DNA of 64,000 nt from Candidatus Latescibacterota bacterium (GTDB lineage Bacteria; Latescibacterota; UBA2968): positions 1,856,001-1,920,000 of the forward strand of contig OZ242195.1 in assembly GCA_965205975.1 (NCBI GenBank), in the 5' to 3' direction. Below are positions 5,801-23,249 of this stretch, one piece after another; within the stretch, counting starts at the first letter, position 1, and each line of letters starts with the position of its first letter. Position numbers and translations under genes: made by a program. The notes below the pieces were generated by a model. The model did not search any database. It worked only from the letters and a program-made list of their open reading frames with translations, and was not told the origin of the DNA.

Positions 5801-6294
5801 GCCAGACCGTACTGCTCGATAGCGGCCCTCTTAGTATGATAACCCACCCAAAGAGTTCGGGAAAATCCATGCAGTTTAAAAACTGGTTTCAGCAGTTAGT
5901 AGCCAGCGGCGTGACAGTGATAGTACCAGAGATCACAGACTACGAGGTTCGACGCGAGTTGCTCAGAGCACGCAAAATCAGCAGTATTCAGCGACTTGAC
6001 GCGCTTATCACCAAGACCGAATACCTGGCGATCACAACCGAAGCCATGCGCCAGGCTGCAAAGTACTGGGCCAATGCTCGTCAGCAAGGTCAACAAACTG
6101 CAGATAATAAAGCACTTGATGTCGATATGATCCTGGCGGCGCAAGCGACAATGCTGAACCAGACTGACGTGGTTATCGCGACGACAAACGTAAAGCATCT
6201 GGCCCCATTCACTCAGGCGCTGCTCTGGTCCGATATTAGTCCGGAGATTCCGAGCAGTTCAAACGGAGATTTACAGAATGACAGTGAAAAATGA
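5797..6294 (+). CDS. PIN-domain (VapC-like) ribonuclease toxin
   Basis: VLLDSG, PEITDYEVRRELL, LDVDMILAAQA, IATTNVKHL. Confidence 0.85.
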   Translation: MSQTVLLDSGPLSMITHPKSSGKSMQFKNWFQQLVASGVTVIVPEITDYEVRRELLRARKISSIQRLDALITKTEYLAITTEAMRQAAKYWANARQQGQQTADNKALDVDMILAAQATMLNQTDVVIATTNVKHLAPFTQALLWSDISPEIPSSSNGDLQNDSEK

Positions 6295-7186
6295 ACTATT
6301 GCAGGATGGATGGCGGGAAGTGAAGTTGGAGGATGCTTGTGAAGTTATTGTCAGTCCAGTTGACAAAAAGACTGTTGATGGAGAATTGCCTGTCAGATTA
6401 TGCAATTACACAGATGTTTATTATAACAATACCATTGATTCTGAAATTGACTTTATGACTGCCACAGCCAAACCTCGAGAAATAGAAAAATTCTCGCTTT
6501 TTAAAGACGATGTAATCATTACTAAAGATTCTGAAACACCCGATGACATTGGTGTTCCTACCTATGTCAAAGAAACCATTGACAATCTGTTGTGCGGCTA
6601 TCATTTGACAATTCTTCGCCCAAAGAAACGGACGATAGGGAAATATGTTTGTTATGCCTTGACTTCTCAGAAAACAAAGTATGATTTTTATAGATTCGCT
6701 AATGGGATTACACGCTTTGGATTGACCTCTAAATCTTACAAAAAAATCAAAATCCTACTTCCACCCCTTCCCGAACAAAAAGCCATTGCGTCTTTGCTGG
6801 AAAAATGGGACACGGCCATTGAGAAAACTGAGGCACTGATAGAGGCAAAAGAGAAGCGGTTTAAATGGTTGCTGAAAACCCTCATCAGCGACCAGCAGGA
6901 TAATCCTGAATGGCAAAAGATGAAGTTAGGAGAGATTTGCACATTTGAATATGGTAAGCCGCTCAAAGAACAAGATAGAATCGGTTATCAATACCCTGTG
7001 TTTGGATCAAATGGAATTGTTGGTCGTCATAACGAGTATTTGGTAGCTGGTCCATTTATCGTGGTTGGGAGAAAAGGTTCGGCTGGTACAGTTTCATATT
7101 CAATGAGTAATGGCTTCCCTATTGATACAACATTCTACATAAATTTACAAAGTGGAGAGATTCACCTTCGGTTCTTATATTACTTA

Positions 7187-8234
7187 ACGCGATGTGTGAC
7201 TTCAAAATGTTACGAGGCCGTCAAAATCCAGCGGGTCTCTGTAATTGATGATATTTAGAAAGACACACATGGTATGGGTTAAGATTTTGGTATGCCACAA
7301 GTTTAATAGATGCCAAGCATCTCGCACTTTCATGCGCGCAATATGCAAACGTTCAGTCAATTGTGCGTAAACGGTTTCGACTAATCGCCTTGTGGTTCTC
7401 TTGGCTTTGGGCAAAATGAAAGGGGTGCGTTGTGGATTGTCTTTCATATTGGACTTTAAGGGTGTCTTTATGCGTATGCGGTAGGTATCAAAGCACCTTT
7501 TTTGCCAGTCCAAATCCATAAATGCTGAATCGGCTAAGACGGTTGTATCTCCCATCGTGCCTTCTATGAGTGCGTCTCGGCACTGCTTGTCGTGTCCATA
7601 GGCTTGCAGGATAGGCGCGTGGAGGATAAGGCCATAATCCGTGATCCTCAGACCGCCCTTAAAACCAAAATACGCTTCGTTTTTGGCTGCGCAAAAGCCT
7701 TTTGAAGGGATAGGGAACTCAAAGACGGGCTCACCTCTAAAAATCTTGCGCGTATGTCGCCTTGCCAGTTTACAGATGGGTAAGGGCAAGGTGTCTATGA
7801 TCTGACAGGACGCCTGATGCCCTTCGAGGCAGGCCACAATCCGCTGTTGCATCCACATCTTGACAACCCACAAATTGGCACATTGACGCACAAAGGCCGG
7901 ACGATCTTTCAAAGTGGGAAACCAGTCTATAAAGTGTTCTTTCATCTGCTCATAAAGTTTCTTCTGGCTTGAATACCCCAAAAAGTGACCCACGATTTCT
8001 ATGGTGAGGCATTCCACATCACTTAAACCGGGTTCAAAGCCTGCCCGACGCGGCTTGCCATGCACCTCACAATACGCTGGATAGAGGTCGTCTTCAATAA
8101 AACAGTAGATTGTAATGACAAAAAGGGCTAAATTATACATTGGAGGTTCCTTTCGTTGCATGGCTTCTTGTTTTACGGACAATCCAAGATAGCCGAGGAA
8201 CCTCTTTTTGTCTATTTAAAGTCACACATCACGT
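7187..8234 (-). mobile_element. IS982-family insertion sequence, 1048 bp
   Basis: Terminal IRs ACGCGATGTGTGACTTCAAA / ACGTGATGTGTGACTTTAAA; 9-bp direct repeat TATTACTTA at 7178-7186 and 8235-8243. Confidence 0.95.
7202..8140 (-). CDS. IS982-family DDE transposase
   Basis: LSDVECLTI, IIDTLPLPIC, YFGFK, VLADSAF, RRLVETVYAQL. Confidence 0.92.
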   Translation of the reverse strand: MYNLALFVITIYCFIEDDLYPAYCEVHGKPRRAGFEPGLSDVECLTIEIVGHFLGYSSQKKLYEQMKEHFIDWFPTLKDRPAFVRQCANLWVVKMWMQQRIVACLEGHQASCQIIDTLPLPICKLARRHTRKIFRGEPVFEFPIPSKGFCAAKNEAYFGFKGGLRITDYGLILHAPILQAYGHDKQCRDALIEGTMGDTTVLADSAFMDLDWQKRCFDTYRIRIKTPLKSNMKDNPQRTPFILPKAKRTTRRLVETVYAQLTERLHIARMKVRDAWHLLNLWHTKILTHTMCVFLNIINYRDPLDFDGLVTF

Positions 8235-8511
8235 TATTACTTATTATTGCATGTAGAACTTGATAGAATTAGTGCTCAGTCTGGTGTGCCGGGTCTAAAC
8301 AGAAATGATGCGTATAAAATTTCAATATCAATACCGTCTTCTGTCGAGCAAAAAGGAATCACTCGAACACTAGACGCAGGAAACCGTGAAATTGATCTAC
8401 TCAACCAACTCGCCGAGAAATACCGCACACAAAAACGCGGATTGATGCAGAAGTTGCTGACGGGAAAGTGGAGGGTAAAACCAAACACGAAGGCGAGGAT
8501 GTGAATTTTAT

Positions 8512-8641: not shown

Positions 8642-8701
8642 ACTCAAAAACGCGGATTGATGCAGAAATTGCTAACTGGCAAGTGGAAAATAAAAATATA
8701 A
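8642..8701 (+). pseudogene. Relic 3' tail of a second hsdS allele
   Basis: Encodes TQKRGLMQKLLTGKWKIKI*. 23 bp identical to 8430-8452, then synonymous differences only through the Trp codon. Confidence 0.85.
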
Positions 8702-8711
8702 GGTAATAAAT

Positions 8712-11700
8712 ATGGCTACATCAAAACGAAATTATTCACAAAGGACACAGAGGATTCTGGACATCCAGAGCTTAAATCAATGTGCATTCCCAGGATGTAC
8801 GAGCCCTTTGGTCGAGCCAGGCGCCGGACAATCAGGCCCTGCTGTTATTAGTGATATATGCCACATTTATGCTTCGAGCCCTAGTGGTCCAAGAGGGCAA
8901 GGGGGTCTCACAGAAGATGAACTAAAGTCTATAGATAACCTGATTTTGCTTTGCCCGAATCACCATAGGGTGGTGGACCGTCAACCTGAAACTTATACAG
9001 CTGAATTGCTCAAACAATGGAAGGAAGAGCATGAAGCTAAAGTGAACAAGCAACGCCCTGCTGGCTTAGATATTATAAGGGAAATCGTTGATCAAAAAAT
9101 TAAGGATGAAACCGATATACTCCGCAAATCTCGCTTTTTTGCCGAGTTTAACAGTACCCTATATTCATTAGAACTCGCAAGAAAGTTGGTAGAAGGAGAA
9201 CTTTCGGTTGGTACTAATGCTGTAAGGAGACAGGCCCTTGCTTGGTGTGTGCGAATCCTATCTGCCAAAAAATTGGATAAAGCAAAAGAATATCTCTATC
9301 ATGCGAAAAAAATAGGTACTTGTGAAGAAATAGATATAGCAGATGCCTTTATATCGTCACAGAAGGGTGATAAAAGCACTGCTCTAAGTGCTCTGACAAG
9401 CATTGATTCACCAATGTCTCTGTCCGCAGCCCTCATAGTTGTCGCAAATCATGATGGGTCACAGGAGGCTATTGACTGGCTAAAGACAGTCGGTATTGAC
9501 ACTGCTGATTTGGCCCCCGAAGGCAAACGGTTTCTTTTGCAGTGTCAGCTTGAACTCGCTGATTGGGAGGCAGCACAAGAATGTCTTGATGTACTGAGTG
9601 ATGACGATTTGCGTGATGCCCCAGTCCTCCATCACTTGAAGGCTATAACACACCTTCTAAGAGCAGTGCCAGATGAACTTCGCTCTAGCATACTTCAACA
9701 ACCACCTTTTGAAGCTGTCAAATTTCCTCTTGGATCAGATGCAGATGCAATTGAAGCCCGCCGACTGGCACACCACCACTTTATAGAGGCTCAAAAAGTA
9801 GCAAATCAGTTAAATTTTCCACAGGCAGCAGCAATAGATAATGAGTACGCACTGTGGCTTGAACTCAAGGATCCCAATGAATCGGACAATGGGCGGAAAC
9901 GGCTGGAAGTTGAACTTAGCGATCCCAAGTCCGCTCTACACCTCGTTCATCTCGGATTTCAATTTGGCATAGAATTAGATACAGCATTAGTCGAACGGGA
10001 GATCGAAAGACAAATTGCTCTCAATGGCAAAACGACCTATGACGCGGCAAAAGCGCGTCTTGCTATCGTTTTCAGGCAACAGACGCCGAAGGAGGCCACA
10101 AATTATATCGCTCGGTACTACGACGAACTTGTCGACCATATTAGTAAAAAATCACTACTGTTTCTCCAAATAGATCTGTTTTCTCAAACTGGACAGATAG
10201 GAAAGGCAAAAGAGTGCTTAGACATCCTTTTAAAAGAAGGACTGCCTGAGATAGATAAAAGCCGGCTTGAGTTCATAATTGCTGAGGCAGAAGGAGAAAT
10301 TGATCCGGTTGAGAGTCTCAAAGAGCAGTTTCAAAAAACAAACGCCCTTAATGATTTGGAAAACCTTGTCCGCAGGCTCAAAGAACAAGATGACTGGAAC
10401 GGTCTTTGCGAATATAGCGAAATTCTGTTTGACAGAACCGGCGAGTTGCGCCAAGCGGAGGATTTAGCACTCGCTTTATACAATACACAAAAGAATGAAC
10501 AACTTATAAAGTTTCTGAAATCAAACAAAGAACTTTTAACGCAGTCCGAACTACTACAAATGCTCTATTGCTGGGCTTTGTTTTTCGAGGGCGATTTACT
10601 CAAGGCTCGCTCCGAATTAAAAAAATTAAATGGTGATTGGGATGATGAGAAAAACCGCAAATTACATCTTTATCTTACAATCTCTTTGGGTGATTGGCCT
10701 GATCTTTCTGAATTTGTAGTTAAAGAGTATCAGAAGAAAGACAAGAGAAATGCTCAAGAATTGATACAAATTGCTCAACTGGCCCTTCAAGTGAACTCAC
10801 CCTATGCAAAAGAGTTGATACAGGCGGCGGCAAACAAAGGGAATAATAATGCTGATGTATTAGGAACCGCCCATTTTCTTGCAGCAAGAGCAGGTTTGGA
10901 AGATGATCCAGAGGTCTCTCAGTGGATTCAACAAGCCGTTGTGCTCTCTGGTGACGATGGACCAATCTGGAAAATGACGCTAAAAGATTTCTGGGATCAA
11001 GTGCCAAATTGGAATCGTCAAGCCTCTGAAATATGGCATCAGTTGAGACGTGGCGAGATCCCGATGTTTCTTGCCGCAGAAGGTACCAATAGGTCCCTTA
11101 GTGATTTGATGCTTTTCCCCGCTTTGGCGAATCCATCAGTAAACGATCCTCGGCGGAGAGTCATCATCCCTGCATATAGCGGTCAGCGACACCCGTTATC
11201 TCTCGATATCAATAGACAAATCGGAATGGATGCAACCACATTGCTCACTTTGAGTCTTTTGAATCTGTTGGACGATGCACTGGACGCTTTTGATACGATC
11301 CACATACCACATTCAACTCTTCGCTGGCTTTTTGATGAAAAACAGAGAGTTGCATTCCATCAGCCAAGCCGGATCAAAGATGCGAAAGAAGTATCTAATT
11401 TATTGAACACTGGTGCGTTAGAAAAATTCTCGCCAAGTACTGTGCCCAACAGTGATTTATCCATCCAAGTTGGAGACGTGTTGGCACAATTTATAGCAGA
11501 GGCAGAAAAAGCGAGCGACAATGACAATACTCAACGCATCGTCGTGCAGCCATCCCCTGTTTATCGGGTTGTCTCTCTGATGGAAGAAGAAGCAGACTTA
11601 CAAGCGCATGAAACCGTGTTGAATAGTTGCCAAGCTATTGTGGAGAAGTTGAGACAAAAGGGCCAGATTACGGCGAATGAAGCACAGAAGGCATGTGACT

Positions 11701-12782
11701 ATTTGCAACTTCACGAGAAACCCTGGTCAAACCAGCCAGATATAGCTGATGGAGCAATACTGTATTTAAGTGACCTGGCTATAGCCTATTTTCAGTATCT
11801 CGGAATATTGGAAAAGCTGCATGCTGCTGGCCTCAAACCTATTATTTCGCCCCAAAAGGTATCTGAAATAAATCAACTCATTTCTTATGAAAATATTTCT
11901 GAAAAGGCCGAAAATACCATAGAACACATACGGCTGGCCGTCAATTCACGGATAGAGACAGAAAAAATACAGATAGGCAGACAATTCTATGTCGATCAAC
12001 CAATAGACAGGTCAATATCCGAACATCCAAGTGTGGGTATTTTCTCATTAGAGAAGGGCTGCAACGCAATCATTATGGACGACAGAGTCCTCAACCAACA
12101 TGCCAATTCCAATCATAGCGACCCACCTATGCCGATATTTTCAACATTGGACCTTATAGATGCACTGGTCTCTAATGGTTCTAAAATACCTGAAGAACGA
12201 CGAGAGTACAGGACCCAACTTCGTAGAGCTGGATACGTATTTATCCCCGTAAGCGTAGATGAACTTGCCCATCATCTTGAAACCTCTGAGGTTGTGGATG
12301 GCAAAGTTGTTGAGACAGCCGAATTAAAAGCTATCCGCGAAAATATTCTTCTCGTTCGAATGAGTACCTGGCTTCAACTTCCAGAAGAAGCATATTGGCT
12401 TGTTGAGTTGCAAAAAACTTTTGTCCATGTGCTAAAAGATCAGTGGAAAGCCGATGCTGACTTTTCGGTTGCCCGGACCCACTCTGACTGGATCTTGGAT
12501 CAAATTGGCATCCATGGCTGGGCACATAGCTATGGCCCTGAGATCGGATCCAACATTGTCAAGACGGGAAGTAGCGCACATATTATGGCGGTGCTCACAC
12601 CCCCAGTTGAAGAACCACAGAAAGTCAGGAAGGAATACTGGAATTGGGTTGAAGGGAGAGTTTTAGCTCCGATCAAAGAACAATATCCCGATCTGTACCT
12701 CGAGCTTGTCGAATGGCACCGAAGATGGATTGCAAAAATTGCTGATATGGATATGATTGAGGAAAGGAAAAATGATGAATAG
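8712..12782 (+). CDS. 1356-aa protein: N-terminal HNH nuclease, TPR-like helical middle, C-terminal PIN-like domain(s)
   Basis: QCAFPGC...ICHIYASSPSGPRG...DNLILLCPNHHRVVD. PIN-like segments IGMDATTLLTL..IHIPHSTL, LYLSDLAI and IIMDDRVL. Confidence 0.75.
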   Translation: MATSKRNYSQRTQRILDIQSLNQCAFPGCTSPLVEPGAGQSGPAVISDICHIYASSPSGPRGQGGLTEDELKSIDNLILLCPNHHRVVDRQPETYTAELLKQWKEEHEAKVNKQRPAGLDIIREIVDQKIKDETDILRKSRFFAEFNSTLYSLELARKLVEGELSVGTNAVRRQALAWCVRILSAKKLDKAKEYLYHAKKIGTCEEIDIADAFISSQKGDKSTALSALTSIDSPMSLSAALIVVANHDGSQEAIDWLKTVGIDTADLAPEGKRFLLQCQLELADWEAAQECLDVLSDDDLRDAPVLHHLKAITHLLRAVPDELRSSILQQPPFEAVKFPLGSDADAIEARRLAHHHFIEAQKVANQLNFPQAAAIDNEYALWLELKDPNESDNGRKRLEVELSDPKSALHLVHLGFQFGIELDTALVEREIERQIALNGKTTYDAAKARLAIVFRQQTPKEATNYIARYYDELVDHISKKSLLFLQIDLFSQTGQIGKAKECLDILLKEGLPEIDKSRLEFIIAEAEGEIDPVESLKEQFQKTNALNDLENLVRRLKEQDDWNGLCEYSEILFDRTGELRQAEDLALALYNTQKNEQLIKFLKSNKELLTQSELLQMLYCWALFFEGDLLKARSELKKLNGDWDDEKNRKLHLYLTISLGDWPDLSEFVVKEYQKKDKRNAQELIQIAQLALQVNSPYAKELIQAAANKGNNNADVLGTAHFLAARAGLEDDPEVSQWIQQAVVLSGDDGPIWKMTLKDFWDQVPNWNRQASEIWHQLRRGEIPMFLAAEGTNRSLSDLMLFPALANPSVNDPRRRVIIPAYSGQRHPLSLDINRQIGMDATTLLTLSLLNLLDDALDAFDTIHIPHSTLRWLFDEKQRVAFHQPSRIKDAKEVSNLLNTGALEKFSPSTVPNSDLSIQVGDVLAQFIAEAEKASDNDNTQRIVVQPSPVYRVVSLMEEEADLQAHETVLNSCQAIVEKLRQKGQITANEAQKACDYLQLHEKPWSNQPDIADGAILYLSDLAIAYFQYLGILEKLHAAGLKPIISPQKVSEINQLISYENISEKAENTIEHIRLAVNSRIETEKIQIGRQFYVDQPIDRSISEHPSVGIFSLEKGCNAIIMDDRVLNQHANSNHSDPPMPIFSTLDLIDALVSNGSKIPEERREYRTQLRRAGYVFIPVSVDELAHHLETSEVVDGKVVETAELKAIRENILLVRMSTWLQLPEEAYWLVELQKTFVHVLKDQWKADADFSVARTHSDWILDQIGIHGWAHSYGPEIGSNIVKTGSSAHIMAVLTPPVEEPQKVRKEYWNWVEGRVLAPIKEQYPDLYLELVEWHRRWIAKIADMDMIEERKNDE

Positions 12783-14703
12783 CCCTTATGTCAAATCTGC
12801 ATTGGCACAAACAGCTTTGGATCTTACTCCTCCACTTATACGTGAGACTTTGCTTAAGGAGTCTAATTTTCGGGATGAGTACAGTCTCACAGCGAATGTG
12901 ACTCTTTCCTTTCCCGATATTGATACTACATTTCACCTTTCCAGCCTGTACGATGCTATCCGAAGCGTTCTTGCAGGTGCATCAGAAAAGAAAGTGATTG
13001 ATACGGAAGGCCAAAAGTGGAGGCTAAAAAACATCGGCAAGAAAGGAGAGCCGCATCTTTCACTTTCTCGCGGCGAAAAGCATTTCTCTCTTCCTGACCT
13101 TGCGACACTTTCTCCAGATAGAGATACACGTCTACGTTTTCTTGATGAAGCTATTTTTGACGTTAATCTTCCCAGCAGTGTATCAGATCAATGGCGTAAT
13201 ATTCTTTCGGAACGCGCCCTCGAAGATGACGAAGTTGATACGTGTCTTAGTGAGTTTCGCAATACACCAGTTGAAATGGTACGTGCCATACAGAGTGAGA
13301 TTATGGCGGGACAAAGTAACTTGTCCTCGCTGGTTCCTTCTTCCCATAGATATTTTGAAAGACTTGTGGGCGTATATGACGACAGTCCTACCATTCGCGA
13401 TTATGCTGCCAGTGGTGGTAGAAAGCTCTTTGCTCAACTGTCTGCGTGGCGACCCTATGACGGCTTTTTATTTAGCCTCCTTCTGTCATCACACACCTCG
13501 CTAACAGATGAAATCAATGTCGATCAGTTGAGTAGTGAAGATCTTGTACGCGCCTACGATTTTTTGGCAAAACATGGTGATAGAATTTCGCAGTTGGGTG
13601 CTATTGAAGTCGGCTTGCGCGTTCTTCCATCAAGGCCTGAGATAGAACAGGGTCTTATCAGTCTCATTGAGCAAATTCGTGATGACGATATTGAGGGACA
13701 AACAAGCGATTTCAAACTACTCTGGGCATTGTTTTGCCTTGTGGATGGAGAGCTATCAAGGACCCGTCTTTTGTCTTCGAAACCACCTTTTTATAGAAGA
13801 TTAGCAGCCTTATCACAGGCTGCATTGATTCATCGCCAGCATGTGAATTTACCTATTGATGTTGACATTGACCGCTTCAGTAAATGGACTTTTAGCAATC
13901 GTGGACAACAATATTACCTCCAATCGCTGGTCGATATGCGTTTGGAACCGCGCTGGGATCCCTATCTTGCAATGGCTTCGCAAATGAAGGCATATTTCTT
14001 TGGTCGCATACTGAGCGCAGCAAAGAAATACGAGCAGAATATAAAGGGTAATCAAATATACGATTTAGTACTCGCAAACAAGACCGGAAGCCCTCAGCCT
14101 TTTGGTGATGACCCTGAGACATGGTTACCTGGTCCATTAGAGGGAGAGGAAAAAACGCAAAAGAATTTGCCAGCCGAAATCGCAGAAACAATTGAGACAC
14201 AGATCCGGAAAGATGAAGTAGGACCATTGTCGTTTGTTGCGCTTGTTAATTTCGCCTTGATTTTTCCTTTTAGTACAGATCATGCTGAATTGGCGGCAAA
14301 AGCATTACAGCGTGCTAACTATCGAATTCCGGACATAGAAGACAGATCGCAGCTTGTTATTATATTAGATGGACTGGCTAAGGTTGCCGCCGTTTCGAGG
14401 AGTTTAACACTCGCGGATGAATTGCAAATCCTTGTACGTAGATACAGGCATGATGCTGAGTATGAGTTGTCCATACAAGAGGTCATAAGAATCTGCCTCT
14501 TAGCCGCTGCAAGTCGTTCAGATCTGAGTGAATGGACAAAATTTGTCGGTGACTGGCTAACGGAACTCGCATTTGGCGATTTGAAAGACGAAGAAGCACA
14601 AGGACTCCATTTGTGCTTAAATAGTCTTTGTCATGCAGTTCCTGAGCTATGGGTATCCTGCGGAAGAGCCGATGCCGCTCTATCCGCTTTGATAAACAAA
14701 TGA
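12772..14703 (+). CDS. Hypothetical 643-aa helical protein coupled to the HNH/PIN gene
   Basis: Long intact ORF with an RBS (GGAAAGGA), overlapping the upstream gene by 11 nt; no motif recognised. Confidence 0.8.
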   Translation: MMNSPYVKSALAQTALDLTPPLIRETLLKESNFRDEYSLTANVTLSFPDIDTTFHLSSLYDAIRSVLAGASEKKVIDTEGQKWRLKNIGKKGEPHLSLSRGEKHFSLPDLATLSPDRDTRLRFLDEAIFDVNLPSSVSDQWRNILSERALEDDEVDTCLSEFRNTPVEMVRAIQSEIMAGQSNLSSLVPSSHRYFERLVGVYDDSPTIRDYAASGGRKLFAQLSAWRPYDGFLFSLLLSSHTSLTDEINVDQLSSEDLVRAYDFLAKHGDRISQLGAIEVGLRVLPSRPEIEQGLISLIEQIRDDDIEGQTSDFKLLWALFCLVDGELSRTRLLSSKPPFYRRLAALSQAALIHRQHVNLPIDVDIDRFSKWTFSNRGQQYYLQSLVDMRLEPRWDPYLAMASQMKAYFFGRILSAAKKYEQNIKGNQIYDLVLANKTGSPQPFGDDPETWLPGPLEGEEKTQKNLPAEIAETIETQIRKDEVGPLSFVALVNFALIFPFSTDHAELAAKALQRANYRIPDIEDRSQLVIILDGLAKVAAVSRSLTLADELQILVRRYRHDAEYELSIQEVIRICLLAAASRSDLSEWTKFVGDWLTELAFGDLKDEEAQGLHLCLNSLCHAVPELWVSCGRADAALSALINK

Positions 14704-14760
14704 TCCATCTAACCAGAAAATTCGTTCGCCCTTGCATCTAACGGCTTTCCCTCTGGACCT

Positions 14761-16193
14761 GGTGTTGTCCCTATATTAGTTGAAATAGTAGAGGCTCCAA
14801 TGTAAATTGGATACAGCAGATTCAACCGTGAAAACGCTGTGTCCACAACCAAAGGAGCCCGTGATGAAAAAAGTATCGCACAAAGCCCCCAAAGTCAAGG
14901 CAATCCACAAAGACGATGCAACGTCCCAGACACCCACACAAGAAGAACTGGACATACTGGATACCCGCATCGCGCTGATCCAGGCCTTGATCCCATTAGG
15001 ATTAGACGCCGTGGCAGAAGAATTGCAGGAGGAAGTGAGCCGCTTGGCCGGGGACAGATACAGTCGCAAAGACACCGAAAACCCCAATCGTCGGTGGGGC
15101 AGTCAACAAGGGTCTGTGTATCTGGCCGATCAAAAAGTGCCGATCTCTGTACCGAGGGTACGTAATGTGGAGAGGGATGAGGAAGTCTGCCTTGAGACCT
15201 ATCATCACCTCCAAGTTCCCAGACGTATGGATGAAGGGCTGCTCCTTCGCGTGATCAAAGGCATTGCGACTCGGTCTTATCAAGCCTGCGCTGAGGCGAT
15301 CCCGAAAGCCTTTGGGCTGTCCTCATCAACGGTATCGAGACGTTTTATCAAGGCGTCGGCACAAAAGCTGAAGCAGTTCCGTGAACGCTCTTTAGCGCCG
15401 TATGACTTGGTTGCCCTCTTTATAGATGGCAAGACCTTTGCAGACCAAGAGATGATCATTGCTCTGGGCGTGACGATAGAAGGGCACAAAATCCCAATAG
15501 GCTTTGTCCAGGCTGCCACTGAGAACGAACGCGTCTGTCGGCAGTTTATACAGTCTCTCATCAATCGTGGCTTGGTCTATCACAAGGGCCTGCTGTGTCT
15601 TATTGACGGCTCAAAAGGCTTGTATGCTGCCCTTACAAAGGCATTGGACGGTTACGTGGTCATCCAACGTTGTCAGTGGCACAAGAGAGAGAACGTGCTT
15701 TCCTATCTGCCTAAAAATAAACAGGATCAGATCAAAAAGGCCCTACAAAATGCCTACGACCAGCCCACCTACAAAGATGCTAAAATGGCACTCTTATCCC
15801 TCAAAGCGGAATTGGCCTTGATCAACGAAGACGCGCTCTCCAGCCTTGAAGAAGGAATAGAAGAAACCCTTTCCTTGCATCGCCTCGGACTGATGCCGCA
15901 CTTGAAGCAGTCCTTTCGTACGACAAACTGCATTGAGTCCATAAACTCAATGGTCGCACAAATCACACGAAATGTGAAGAGATGGACAAACTCGAATCAA
16001 CGCAGGAGATGGTTAGCCACCGCTCTGCTGGACATTGAACCCCGATTGCGAAGGGTCAAAGGCTACAAAAGCCTACCCAGGCTCAGGCGCGCACTGCACA
16101 AGCACTTGAAACTCGATACAGACTGGCAAGACCCAATTGCTGCGGATTGAAAACACCGGCCTCAATTATTTCAACTAAATATAGGACTTGACC
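14761..16193 (+). mobile_element. IS256-family insertion sequence, about 1433 bp, no target duplication
   Basis: Imperfect 27-bp IRs GGTGTTGTCCCTATATTAGTTGAAATA / GGTCAAGTCCTATATTTAGTTGAAATA. The flanks (tctggacct, agacaactg) do not match. Confidence 0.85.
14864..16150 (+). CDS. IS256-family (Mutator-type) transposase
   Basis: ALFIDGK, LIDGSKGL, QRCQWHK, RTTNCIES; RBS AAAGGAG before ATG 14864. Confidence 0.93.
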   Translation: MKKVSHKAPKVKAIHKDDATSQTPTQEELDILDTRIALIQALIPLGLDAVAEELQEEVSRLAGDRYSRKDTENPNRRWGSQQGSVYLADQKVPISVPRVRNVERDEEVCLETYHHLQVPRRMDEGLLLRVIKGIATRSYQACAEAIPKAFGLSSSTVSRRFIKASAQKLKQFRERSLAPYDLVALFIDGKTFADQEMIIALGVTIEGHKIPIGFVQAATENERVCRQFIQSLINRGLVYHKGLLCLIDGSKGLYAALTKALDGYVVIQRCQWHKRENVLSYLPKNKQDQIKKALQNAYDQPTYKDAKMALLSLKAELALINEDALSSLEEGIEETLSLHRLGLMPHLKQSFRTTNCIESINSMVAQITRNVKRWTNSNQRRRWLATALLDIEPRLRRVKGYKSLPRLRRALHKHLKLDTDWQDPIAAD

Positions 16194-16674
16194 AGACAAC
16201 TGGCGAGCATCTCAAGTTCGCAATATCGGTGTTATCGAAGGCAATAGGCCAGCGACAGATAATGATTGGGAAACGATTAAAAGAGGTGGAGACGCAGCCA
16301 TAGTGAGGTGGATCAGAGGCCAAATGAGGGGAAAGACTTGCACCATTGTTTTGGTAGGAACAAACACCGCGAATCGCAAGTGGATCAACTATGAAATAGT
16401 AGAATCGTGGCGTCAAAAAATGGGGGTGGTGGGCATTCATGTCCATGGCCTGAAGGATAGATATGGTCGCACTTCAGCAATGGGCTATAATCCCTTCGGC
16501 TACTTCACATTTCCAAGAACGGTAACAGCAATGTCAAGCGTTGTGCGGTGCTATAACCCACCGGGCCGGAACAGCACAGAGAGGTATAATTGGATTGCCA
16601 ATAATCTTTCAGCGATGGTTGAAGAAGCAATCGACATCCGCAAAAAATTCCAAGCAGGAAGGTATGTCAAATGA
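16192..16674 (+). pseudogene. ThsB-like TIR-domain (DUF1863-type) gene, 5'-truncated by IS256
   Basis: The frame reads DNWRASQVRNIGVIEGN..NDWETIKRGGDAAI..CTIVLVG..RKWINYEIVES from the IS end. It is preceded by an in-frame TGA and lacks the usual N-terminal F-x-S-F-H-Y strand. Confidence 0.85.
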
Positions 16675-17117
16675 ACAACAATGAATGTATCTTGAAGCAC
16701 CTGGAGTTTATTCAGGATATCGTAAACCGCTTGGAATCCAATGCCTTCCTTCTCAAGGGGTGGAGCCTTACCGTCCTTGTCGGAGGATCCTTATTGATGG
16801 TGAGACTTAGGCCAGACCAACCTCTATTAGCATTGACACTTCTCGTACCTGTTTTCGGGTTCTGGATGCTGGATGCATATTTTTTGTGGCAAGGGCGGTT
16901 GTTTCGAGATGAGTACAACCGGGTGCGTAAACAGGATGAGACCGACTTTGCCCTGGATCCGATGCAACATAAGCATAAACCGAAACGTAGCTGGTGCTCA
17001 ACATTTTTCTCCGGTACGCCGTTCATTTTTTATGTTGTGGAAATTGGGTTTGTTTCAGTTCTCGTTTTTTTTCTATGGATGGCAGGCATCCCGGCACCTG
17101 AGAATTGCTTCCCATGA
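16671..17117 (+). CDS. Small transmembrane protein of the type found next to TIR genes
   Basis: KHLEFIQ..NRL..NAFLLKGW, FWMLDAYFL..RLFR; three hydrophobic segments; ATGA overlap with the TIR gene. Confidence 0.75.
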   Translation: MNNNECILKHLEFIQDIVNRLESNAFLLKGWSLTVLVGGSLLMVRLRPDQPLLALTLLVPVFGFWMLDAYFLWQGRLFRDEYNRVRKQDETDFALDPMQHKHKPKRSWCSTFFSGTPFIFYVVEIGFVSVLVFFLWMAGIPAPENCFP

Positions 17118-17247: not shown

Positions 17248-17391
17248 ATGAGCAGACAACCATTCACCAGACCTCAAGCTGCGGAGTTGGCGCGGCGGTT
17301 AAAAGAACCCCGACGATTCATTCAAGTCGTATTGGGAGCGAGGCAGGTCGGCAAAACGACCCTTGCATTGCAAGTGGCAGATCAGGAGGAT
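17248..17391 (+). pseudogene. N-terminal relic of an AAA-family ATPase, in frame with hicB
   Basis: RRFIQVVLGARQVGKTTLA (Walker A), followed by an abrupt switch to HicB sequence. Confidence 0.75.
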
Positions 17392-17619
17392 ATGATGAGA
17401 AATTTTAGAATTATCGTTGAAAGATATTCCGATGGCTATGTGGGATATCCGCTCGGATTGAAGGGGGTCGTCGTTGGGCAGGGAGATACTTATGAAGAGG
17501 CATTGGCAGATGTAAAATCTGCTATTCGGTTTCATATTGAGACGTTTGGTAAAGAAGCGTTTGATGAAGATCCGCCGGTTCTGGAAACTTTTATGATTAA
17601 TGCAGAAATGGCGGTATAG
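17392..17619 (+). CDS. hicB: HicB-family antitoxin (short form)
   Basis: GYVGYPLGLKGVVVGQGDTYEEALADVKSAI; own RBS AGGAGGA. Confidence 0.85.
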   Translation: MMRNFRIIVERYSDGYVGYPLGLKGVVVGQGDTYEEALADVKSAIRFHIETFGKEAFDEDPPVLETFMINAEMAV

Positions 17620-21906: not shown

Positions 21907-23223
21907 TCACAACGTATGCAATTTTTGCGACAAATTTTCAACAGGTGTAAACACCCACTGTTTTCCTCTTTTTACCGCATTGAGCAATCCTTGAGCCTGT
22001 AAATTCAGCAAATCTGTACGTGCGGTCTGATAAACCACATTGTGGCTATTCTGGTGGCCATAGATTGTATAGCGATGGCGGGGATGGCGAAGTGCATGAC
22101 TCAAAAGTGCGCGTTGTCGATGATTGAACACGGCAGAATTTTTCAACACCTGATCAATGTCTTCAAATAGTCGCGCTTTGCGTTTGGCATATTGATGAAA
22201 TACATCCACAGTTTGCTCAATAACGCGCAATTGGTATAAAATAAAATACGTCAAATCATTGTCATCCGTCTCAGTGTACAAAAAGGACCGGCTATATCTT
22301 ACAGGAGCCTTGTGCAAAATTTGCGAAATAGACAAAAACTTAAACAGCCCGTAACCATTGCGTAGCATCAACCAGTAGAACAGTGCGCGTGCGGTGCGCC
22401 CATTGCCATCGACAAATGGGTGGTCATATCCCAGCCAGAAATGCAACATAATCGCTCGAAGCGCCGGATGAATAAACCAATCTGGCGTTTTGCCATTGGC
22501 AAAATCGCACATCGCCTGCACGCGCTCGGGGAGCTCTTCCGCAGGTGGCGGACGGTGCAAAATCTCACCAGTAATGGTATCGGTAACATAAACAGATTCT
22601 TTTGCATACCGAAAACGACCAGTACCTGATGGATCGTCCAGAGTATCTTCCGTCACCAGGCGGTGCAGATGAAAAATCAGGTCTTGAGTTAAAGGCTGAT
22701 CTTTCAACTCGCCAATTGCATTCATAGTGAGATAATTATTCAAAATCATCTGCTCACTGCGATTCTGTGGGGCTCGTCCAGTGCGGAGCATTTCTCTGGC
22801 GACCTGGCGCGTGGTTGTGGCACCTTCGAGTTGGCTGGATGTAATGGCCTCTTCAATCAGTGAATCCACAAAGTAGAGATTGGAGAACTCAGATGTAGTA
22901 GCCTGTTCAAGCAGACTAGAAAAACCAGACCTTCCCAAATCGATTTGGTGCAAATACTCGGGAATGGGGTCTATAATCAAAAAACGAAACGGGATGCCCG
23001 AGCCATCAACAAGTGGGATTTCTTTCCACAATTCCTTGCGGTGCAGCTTAAGGCCCAACCACCACTCGCGATGTGTCAGCCCCCGGGGAGGAGTCCGATA
23101 ACGCAACTCATCCCAATGCAAGTAGTCAGCCAACTCCACTTCCGAAATCAAATGTGGAAGTCGTCCAACTTCCACATCGCGCATCAGATCATCGAAAGCC
23201 GGTGGTATTTGCGGTTTTTTCAT
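21907..23223 (-). CDS. Fic-family protein (class II, N-terminal inhibitory motif) with probable C-terminal wHTH
   Basis: HPFVDGNGRTAR catalytic motif, SSQLEG inhibitory motif, VVYQTARTDL near the C-terminus. Confidence 0.92.
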   Translation of the reverse strand: MKKPQIPPAFDDLMRDVEVGRLPHLISEVELADYLHWDELRYRTPPRGLTHREWWLGLKLHRKELWKEIPLVDGSGIPFRFLIIDPIPEYLHQIDLGRSGFSSLLEQATTSEFSNLYFVDSLIEEAITSSQLEGATTTRQVAREMLRTGRAPQNRSEQMILNNYLTMNAIGELKDQPLTQDLIFHLHRLVTEDTLDDPSGTGRFRYAKESVYVTDTITGEILHRPPPAEELPERVQAMCDFANGKTPDWFIHPALRAIMLHFWLGYDHPFVDGNGRTARALFYWLMLRNGYGLFKFLSISQILHKAPVRYSRSFLYTETDDNDLTYFILYQLRVIEQTVDVFHQYAKRKARLFEDIDQVLKNSAVFNHRQRALLSHALRHPRHRYTIYGHQNSHNVVYQTARTDLLNLQAQGLLNAVKRGKQWVFTPVENLSQKLHTL

Positions 23224-23249
23224 AATCACTGCCCATCCATATTAAATGC

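Follow-up and report, generated by a model that had tools for sequence, protein, structure and literature searches.

A two-gene cassette with a swappable HNH effector and a double-PIN body in a Latescibacterota restriction-modification operon is a predicted variant of TGP conflict systems

We analysed a 64,000-nucleotide stretch of a Candidatus Latescibacterota bacterium (contig OZ242195.1 of assembly GCA_965205975.1, positions 1,856,001 to 1,920,000; hereafter the window). Within a type I restriction-modification (RM) operon, it carries a cassette of two overlapping genes, referred to here as gene 1 and gene 2. We estimate a probability of roughly 60% that the cassette senses infection and, once activated, fires the HNH nuclease at the N-terminus of gene 1 to bring about abortive infection. 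The two genes would constitute one sensor–effector machine made of two chains that assemble in trans. This reading draws on the domain content, the intact HNH domain, the obligate linkage of the two genes, their fusion in relatives, the swapping of effectors, and a pairing of short motifs in effector-less relatives.

Results

In many relatives, gene 2 forms the last third of one polypeptide

A first-pass annotation, made from the letters of the window, described two intact overlapping open reading frames and treated gene 2 as an obligate partner of gene 1. Both frames are indeed open. They overlap by 11 nt, and a purine-rich, Shine–Dalgarno-like run precedes the gene 2 start, which is an ATG-ATG at 12772 (642 residues if counted from 12775). 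The idea of a partner has to be given up. When relatives longer than gene 2 itself are sought, 144 matches are returned, and in 120 of the 120 listed, gene 1 is followed by gene 2 in one chain, mostly of 1900–2280 residues. At 50% identity, the gene 2 family falls into 1078 clusters; of the best 150 representatives, 110 stand alone, 28 are fused, and 12 are partial. In a quick tree of 205 gene 2 modules (140 split and 65 fused, drawn from every fourth close stand-alone match, every third fused match, and the representatives, with rows of <580 aligned residues dropped), the state switches between split and fused 31 times, with starred branches forcing at least 21 of these changes, compared with 55 changes in shuffles; the direction of the changes is not readable from this tree.

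Wherever the sequence preceding gene 2 is available, gene 1 lies directly 5' of it (71 of 71 loci; the genes are split at 62 and fused at 9), and the stop and start of the two genes overlap at nearly all linked loci. The underlying set is 82 gene 2 loci, of which 80 were kept from 166 metagenome matches and two come from plasmid records; a few are duplicates, and 11 end too early. Among 168 genomes of Latescibacterota, gene 1 is present in 11 and gene 2 in the same 11, and two further genomes contain gene 2 remnants only. The conserved pairing that the first-pass annotation had expected is therefore found. Because fusions recur and gene 1 always precedes gene 2, gene 2 is, judged by sequence, not a separate partner; in many relatives it makes up the C-terminal third of a polypeptide that begins with gene 1. 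Fusion and linkage together suggest that the split chains assemble in trans.

The split in the window is real, because a contig from another study's run, which spans 11768–14760, runs through the junction without a gap and differs by 15 substitutions. An assembly frameshift is ruled out by this contig together with the overlapping split loci found elsewhere. Programmed frameshifting was considered as well. The loci share no slippery run and their overlaps vary (4 nt or 11 nt), so separate initiation of gene 2 appears likelier.

Several relatives depart from the common form. In the fused gene of L005, a strong Shine–Dalgarno-like run and an ATG are kept at the junction near 10001, and the gene may also yield a gene 2 chain by internal initiation. 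A methionine occupies the junction position in 32 of 141 fused proteins. A distant relative (L029:7765–14161, minus strand) has a gene for a 351-residue Mrr-like nuclease followed by a 1789-residue core with a fused gene 2 module; it is split at a different place, within an unrelated type I RM operon, and this split could also be a frameshift. Shorter fused forms of ~1070–1240 residues (P0233, P0234, P0240, P0242, P0251, and P0259) lack most of the TPR region, and several of them have no match to gene 1 residues ~884–1030, which make up much of the proposed inner PIN. In P0182, P0205, and P0286, a Schlafen/AlbA_2 domain is added C-terminal to the gene 2 module.

The N-terminal effector is exchanged among relatives

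Residues ~3–115 of gene 1 match the CBASS/SAVED-HNH effector models of PADLOC, and none of 148 aligned rows deviates at H51, N76, C81, or H85. The HNH domain of the first-pass annotation is thus well founded. In relatives, other domains take its place. The core is found in 258 proteins, 235 of which have a complete core start, and in this sample, which is biased to close kin, the N-termini labelled by Pfam are HNH (139), TIR (22), phosphoesterase (4), SMEK (2), SIR2 (1), and PNPase (1). The others include a 13-member cluster, several small clusters, and helical or membrane segments; 32 are shorter than 50 residues. Going by their motifs, we take the 13-member cluster and several of the small ones to be restriction-nuclease-like. 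The effector swapping that the annotation had proposed to look for is evident from this exchange.

Effector-less relatives carry a Q/S/G/N-rich motif of ~20 residues at the N-terminus of gene 1. A gene of ~70 codons lies 5' of it and encodes a protein with a hydrophobic helix and, at its C-terminal end, a matching motif. Among 45 loci with a complete gene 1 start (three locus pairs are duplicate or near-duplicate), the motif pair is present at 20 of 21 loci with N-termini of ≤75 residues and 0 of 23 with N-termini of ≥125 residues when grouped by hand, and at 16 of 17 versus 4 of 28 when split by the motif pattern. At the remaining locus, L127, the small gene is fused to gene 1 (5979–6245). 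For 19 motif pairs, the cognate score is 51.9, the non-cognate score 45.8, and the shuffled score 16.3, with the gap between cognate and non-cognate inflated by kinship. The small proteins have no Pfam or NCBIfam family of their own (EAD10 matches weakly in one of five) and otherwise match just the N-terminus of PDC-M43A (4 of 4, E 5e-8 to 7e-6). The small motif gene stands 5' of gene 1 in L075, L076, L086, L087, L095, L103, L105, L107, L108, L109, L111, L116, L124, L128, L130, L132, L134, L135, and L139. By analogy, the ~70-residue family is a candidate amyloid-coupled membrane effector, and the motif pairs are the strongest indication of a constant body that works as a switch and activates its N-terminus by clustering. 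The window copy, with its fused HNH, has neither the motif nor the small upstream gene.

The two PIN repeats may form one composite active site

Two PIN-like starts and an IIMDDR motif had been noted in gene 1. The starts lie at nt ~11217–11231 and ~11757–11771, and the DD of the motif corresponds to nt 12078–12083. Both starts are borne out by profile searches: each repeat slice matches PF20698 (E 5.7e-6 and E 3.4e-5), which Pfam describes as the PIN of the TPR-GreAB-C-PIN system, and the whole gene 1 protein matches it in two stretches (42.2 bits, cut-off 27.8). The hhalign comparison of repeat 1 with repeat 2 gives E 0.037.

In a structure search with the model of residues 737–1356 (pLDDT 88.4), single PIN chains rank best, with 1o4w at Z 8.8 (rmsd 3.3, 118 residues aligned) and the PIN of EST1A at Z 7.9 (rmsd 2.7, 123 residues aligned). 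These Z values are middling. Every PIN row listed is aligned from the first strand of repeat 1 to the last part of repeat 2, such that ~120 residues are aligned across a span of 310–360 residues in gene 1; the topology is read from these spans rather than from coordinates. Single-PIN alignments that span both repeats are most simply explained by interlocked repeats, as the model suggests.

Conservation agrees with interlocking, because the outer-site residues are divided between the repeats. Over 292 sequences, D840 is conserved in 279 (with E in 12 more), E876 in 292, D1123 in 292, D1124 in 291, and N1128, which belongs to the same between-repeat set, in 290. The inner site is looser (E930 in 282, D1020 in 273, E1052 in 245, and D1021 in 215). 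The window copy has Ser at 1020, where most relatives have Asp, and 12 of the 292 rows are like it. Judging from the model, one composite PIN site, common to both repeats, is probably functional and intact in the window copy. The first-pass annotation had proposed DNase and RNase outputs. HNH and PIN folds are both supported, but two independent RNase outputs are doubtful, because there is a single near-invariant acidic set and it is shared by both repeats.

The remaining body of gene 1 and gene 2 carries no recognizable NTPase

The middle region of gene 1 appears TPR/PPR-like and helical from weak hits, in line with the TPR-like helices described earlier. Consistent with the annotation, a pattern scan of both proteins finds no Walker A, and neither protein matches an NTPase family in the PADLOC, Pfam, or NCBIfam scans. 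NCBIfam has no match for either gene. PADLOC 2.0 has none for gene 2, for gene 1 past residue 116, or for any of 25 distant core or gene 2 relatives. PDB sequence searches return no meaningful relative of either protein, and no Foldseek match to the two models reaches E ≤ 0.001. In the ESM Atlas, gene 1 falls in PF20698/PF24407 clusters, and gene 2 has nothing at 0.9.

Gene 2 had been described as having no recognized motif. It does contain a named domain, Permuted_GreAB-C (PF24388), matched at E 1.6e-9 and, in a second scan, at E 1.5e-10. In the gene 2 model (pLDDT 94.9), this beta/alpha domain is followed by ~535 helical residues. A wide structural search with the whole model retrieves generic helical repeats only (best Z 10.0, rmsd 4.1, 154 residues aligned, in residues 463–642). 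A predicted complex of gene 2 with the rim-helix fragment of the beta-prime subunit of host RNA polymerase scores 0.01, which speaks neither for nor against such an interaction.

Table 1 Features of the cassette in window coordinates
Feature	Position	Strand	Basis or remark
54-nt duplicate (85%) of the hsdS 3' end (8427–8480), before gene 1	8642..8695	+	Sequence comparison
Gene 1	8712..12782	+	1356 aa; proposed effector and sensor N-half
Zn-binding HNH nuclease, Cap5/SAVED-HNH type, swappable effector	8712..9056	+	PADLOC E 4e-27; intact invariant residues; replaced in relatives
TPR/PPR-like helical solenoid, residues ~119–750	9066..10961	+	Weak Pfam TPR_19; designer PPR chains by profile, E 1.5e-4
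HTH_upst_double_PIN (PF24407), residues 757–826	10980..11189	+	Pfam E 6.9e-24
Two PIN repeats, residues ~836–1160, probably interlocked	11217..12191	+	PF20698 twice; model pLDDT 88.4; structural matches; conservation
Gene 1 C-terminal helical domain, joins gene 2 in fused relatives	12192..12779	+	Model; fused homologues
Gene 2	12772..14703	+	643 aa; proposed sensor C-half, predicted to be translationally coupled to gene 1
Small beta/alpha domain; Permuted_GreAB-C (PF24388) at residues 52–93	12892..13092	+	E 1.5e-10; secondary structure
All-helical body, conserved R119, D269, E278, R341, R342, D387, R389, R411	13093..14700	+	Model, conservation; no clear solved match

Relation to known systems

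The closest described systems are the TGP (TPR-GreA/B-C-PIN) conflict systems, which Kaur et al. (2021, eLife; PMC8195603) predicted to act against invaders. As in TGP, a variable N-terminal effector sits on a constant body of TPR and PF20698-type PIN with no NTPase, and the effector set is the same, since TGP have HNH, REase, TIR, SIR2, and PNPase. The layout differs. Between TPR and PIN, the window family has an HTH where TGP has GreA/B-C; there are two PIN repeats instead of a single C-terminal PIN in one gene; ~830 extra residues follow the PINs, including the permuted GreA/B-C-like domain in gene 2; and the whole is ~2000 residues, usually in two genes, versus ~1100 residues, mostly stand-alone. 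One row in the supplement of PMC8195603 (12 of 13 files searched) reads TPR+PIN+PIN, with 2304 residues. Because its working is TGP-like but its domain order is not that of TGP, we predict that the cassette is an architectural variant of TGP systems and not a member.

Bab/Agp is a validated TGP in which Agp senses phage and the output is abortive infection (10.1101/2024.11.07.622273). As in Bab/Agp, the effector-less relatives have a small upstream membrane gene that shares a ~20-residue motif with the sensor N-terminus. Agp, in contrast, has 1094 residues and a single PIN. In the window copy, the HNH is part of the sensor chain and the motif pair is absent. The small proteins in relatives are ~70-residue, single-helix proteins.

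For TGP, Kaur et al. stated a two-tier model (PMC8195603), which applied to the cassette would have the GreA/B-C-like domain dock on RNA polymerase, the PIN cut viral transcripts first, and the HNH serve as back-up. The four near-invariant acidic residues D840, E876, D1123, and D1124 point to a working PIN active site, and GreA/B-C mutations abolish Bab/Agp defence. For Agp, however, no effector-independent activity was found (10.1101/2024.11.07.622273), and the GreA-like domain here is permuted, placed after the PINs, and on a separate chain, and profile comparison with GreA C-domains does not confirm its homology (E 0.35). We therefore regard two-tier action of the cassette as unlikely.

Other systems share single parts. 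The HNH domain is the same as in CBASS Cap5/SAVED-HNH effectors and PADLOC PDC-M68A (E 4e-27 to 4e-35), but the match to Cap5 stops at residue ~115, there is no SAVED domain, and a Pfam scan of 17 neighbouring open reading frames finds no cyclase. Avs and bacterial NLR proteins have a STAND P-loop NTPase, unlike either protein here. In DS-3 of DefensePredictor, a validated system, the PIN is discontinuous in sequence and catalytically required (PMC13092281); DS-3 is a one-protein system for which TPR, HNH, or GreA-like parts are not described.

The first-pass annotation had called the system undescribed. This holds in so far as PADLOC has no model for the core and no experimental test was found in the literature, as the annotation had also supposed; nor did the literature, with supplements covered in part, yield a description or test of double-PIN, two-gene, or motif-coupled forms. 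It does not hold for the parts. Pfam PF24407, PF24388, and PF20698 match them directly, covering ~260 of 2000 residues, so Pfam curators have seen the double-PIN architecture, and a rearranged relative exists in TGP. The TPR and PIN composition, a defence-type architecture, had been recognized correctly.

The RM operon is a landing site

The cassette lies in a type I RM operon together with RhuM, a PIN gene, a TIR gene truncated by IS256, and PDC-M50A. The first-pass annotation, which placed it in the hsdS–hsdR slot, was right about the operon, but the slot also holds an insertion sequence (IS) in hsdS, the IS256 element, the truncated TIR gene, PDC-M50A, and an AAA fragment. The annotation further suggested that the cassette guards the RM system. 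Gene 2 would then restrain a DNase/RNase toxin, as an antitoxin does, and release it when the neighbouring RM complex is inhibited. The position between hsdS and hsdR and the coupled, overlapping genes are compatible with this, and in a set of 14 distinct loci from closer kin, two of which keep just a remnant in the slot, 8 of the 12 intact cassettes have type I RM genes nearby, the distant relative in a different RM operon among them. The other four have none. Among 18 long metagenome loci (93 neighbours scanned), defence or toxin–antitoxin-type genes are found at 12, RM genes at 3, and mobile genes only at 2, a count that has no background control; type I genes are matched in 5 of 80 metagenome loci. 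The defence-type neighbours, like the patchy occurrence in kin described below, count in favour of an infection-sensing role. Since RM genes are near few metagenome loci and absent at some intact kin loci, the RM operon is a landing site and not a required partner. Kin RM operons without the cassette exist, as in L028; the full-length hsdS of the window is IS-broken while the cassette is intact; and repeated fusion of gene 1 to gene 2 does not fit a labile antitoxin. Guarding of the RM system, or toxin–antitoxin action, is improbable.

The L028 locus lies in a genome of the same genus and in the same RM operon. The last ~21 codons of gene 2 are left there between hsdS and hsdR (L028:10056–10118). 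As only this remnant remains, the cassette was deleted.

Within the phylum, the cassette is patchy (11 of 168 genomes), with deletion remnants. Relatives occur on 3 of 72,556 plasmid records, and phage records and viral contigs contain zero. Patchiness and the plasmid records, together with integrases, IS, and genes of integrative and conjugative elements among the neighbours, are what a selfish addiction module, a stress-triggered suicide module, or an anti-plasmid defence riding on mobile DNA would show. Such a non-phage role is improbable, given that relatives are so rare on plasmids and lacking in phage and viral sequences. Immunity is also the better explanation for a multi-domain sensor of 6 kb whose relatives exchange immune effectors and carry motif pairs like those of Bab/Agp.

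Proposed function

In the abortive-infection mechanism that we favour, the constant body (TPR solenoid, HTH, interlocked double PIN, helical linker, permuted GreA/B-C-like domain, and helical body) would act as infection sensor and switch. It would detect a phage product or hijacked transcription, and a change of state with clustering would switch on whatever N-terminal effector is present. In the window copy, the HNH DNase would destroy DNA and thereby abort the infection. RNA polymerase is a candidate trigger by analogy with Bab/Agp. The anti-phage role, the clustering, and the cell death are the parts that we infer.

Several points weigh against this reading. The domain order is not that of TGP, and the signals in common with TGP are just the PF20698 PIN, the name that Pfam gives to the gene 2 domain, and the effector set. 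Homology of the gene 2 domain to GreA/B-C is not independently confirmed by hhalign against 30 GreA C-domains (E 0.35). Mean-field co-evolution (292 sequences, effective number 153) is too noisy to distinguish tandem from interlocked repeats, and the interlocked topology is not confirmed by it. The motif would be amyloid by its resemblance to bacterial amyloid signalling motifs (10.1101/2020.01.06.895854). Four of the 18 long metagenome loci have neither defence nor mobile neighbours, and the lack of a background bears on the whole neighbour count. RNA run X14 contains just short divergent pieces (90–95%) for the cassette, too little to demonstrate its transcription. No experiment on the family was found in the literature.

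A broader proposal, which we put forward tentatively, is that the family represents a widespread class of NTPase-free immune receptors. The two PIN repeats would interlock to form a conformational switch in which both contribute to a single active site, and the detachable 640-residue subunit of unmatched helical fold would provide a trigger-binding surface, possibly on RNA polymerase. Activation would lead to clustering, and the clusters would act through a fused enzyme (HNH here) or through a 70-residue membrane-disrupting protein; in the second case the connection would be made by an amyloid motif family that has not been reported before. If true, this would be an NLR-like signalosome logic on a nuclease scaffold. 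The family also offers bacterial immunity a candidate second route to amyloid signalling. Few immune receptors lack an NTPase, and TGP-type proteins belong to them. The family is large and naturally modular, and in the split form the sensor halves can be expressed, deleted, and swapped apart. With the HNH and amyloid-type outputs as two readouts, the trigger, the clustering, and the role of the PIN become directly testable.

Other features of the locus

The GC content of the gene 1–gene 2 region is 0.42–0.46, AT-richer than most of the 64-kb window. No promoter-like site was found on the sense strand directly 5' of gene 1. The 54-nt duplicate of the hsdS end (Table 1) is likely a scar of cassette capture by recombination at hsdS ends.

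The full-length hsdS (6278–8504) is broken by a DDE_Tnp_1_3 IS at 7185–8236, with 22-nt inverted repeats and a short target duplication, leaving a 3' remainder at ~8235–8504. A separate, half-size hsdS lies at 1331–2083. The hsdS-breaking IS is missing from a contig of run X7.

Downstream of gene 2, an IS256-family element, which has imperfect inverted repeats of 37 nt, has cut away the 5' start of a TIR gene resembling ThsB (14759–17117). This TIR gene and the PDC-M50A membrane gene are probably a broken candidate defence pair. A 123-residue open reading frame at 17248–17619 joins an N-terminal AAA_14 fragment to a HicB-like piece. Further defence-island content follows hsdR and YgjP, where a SoFic-like Fic gene occupies 21907–23229.

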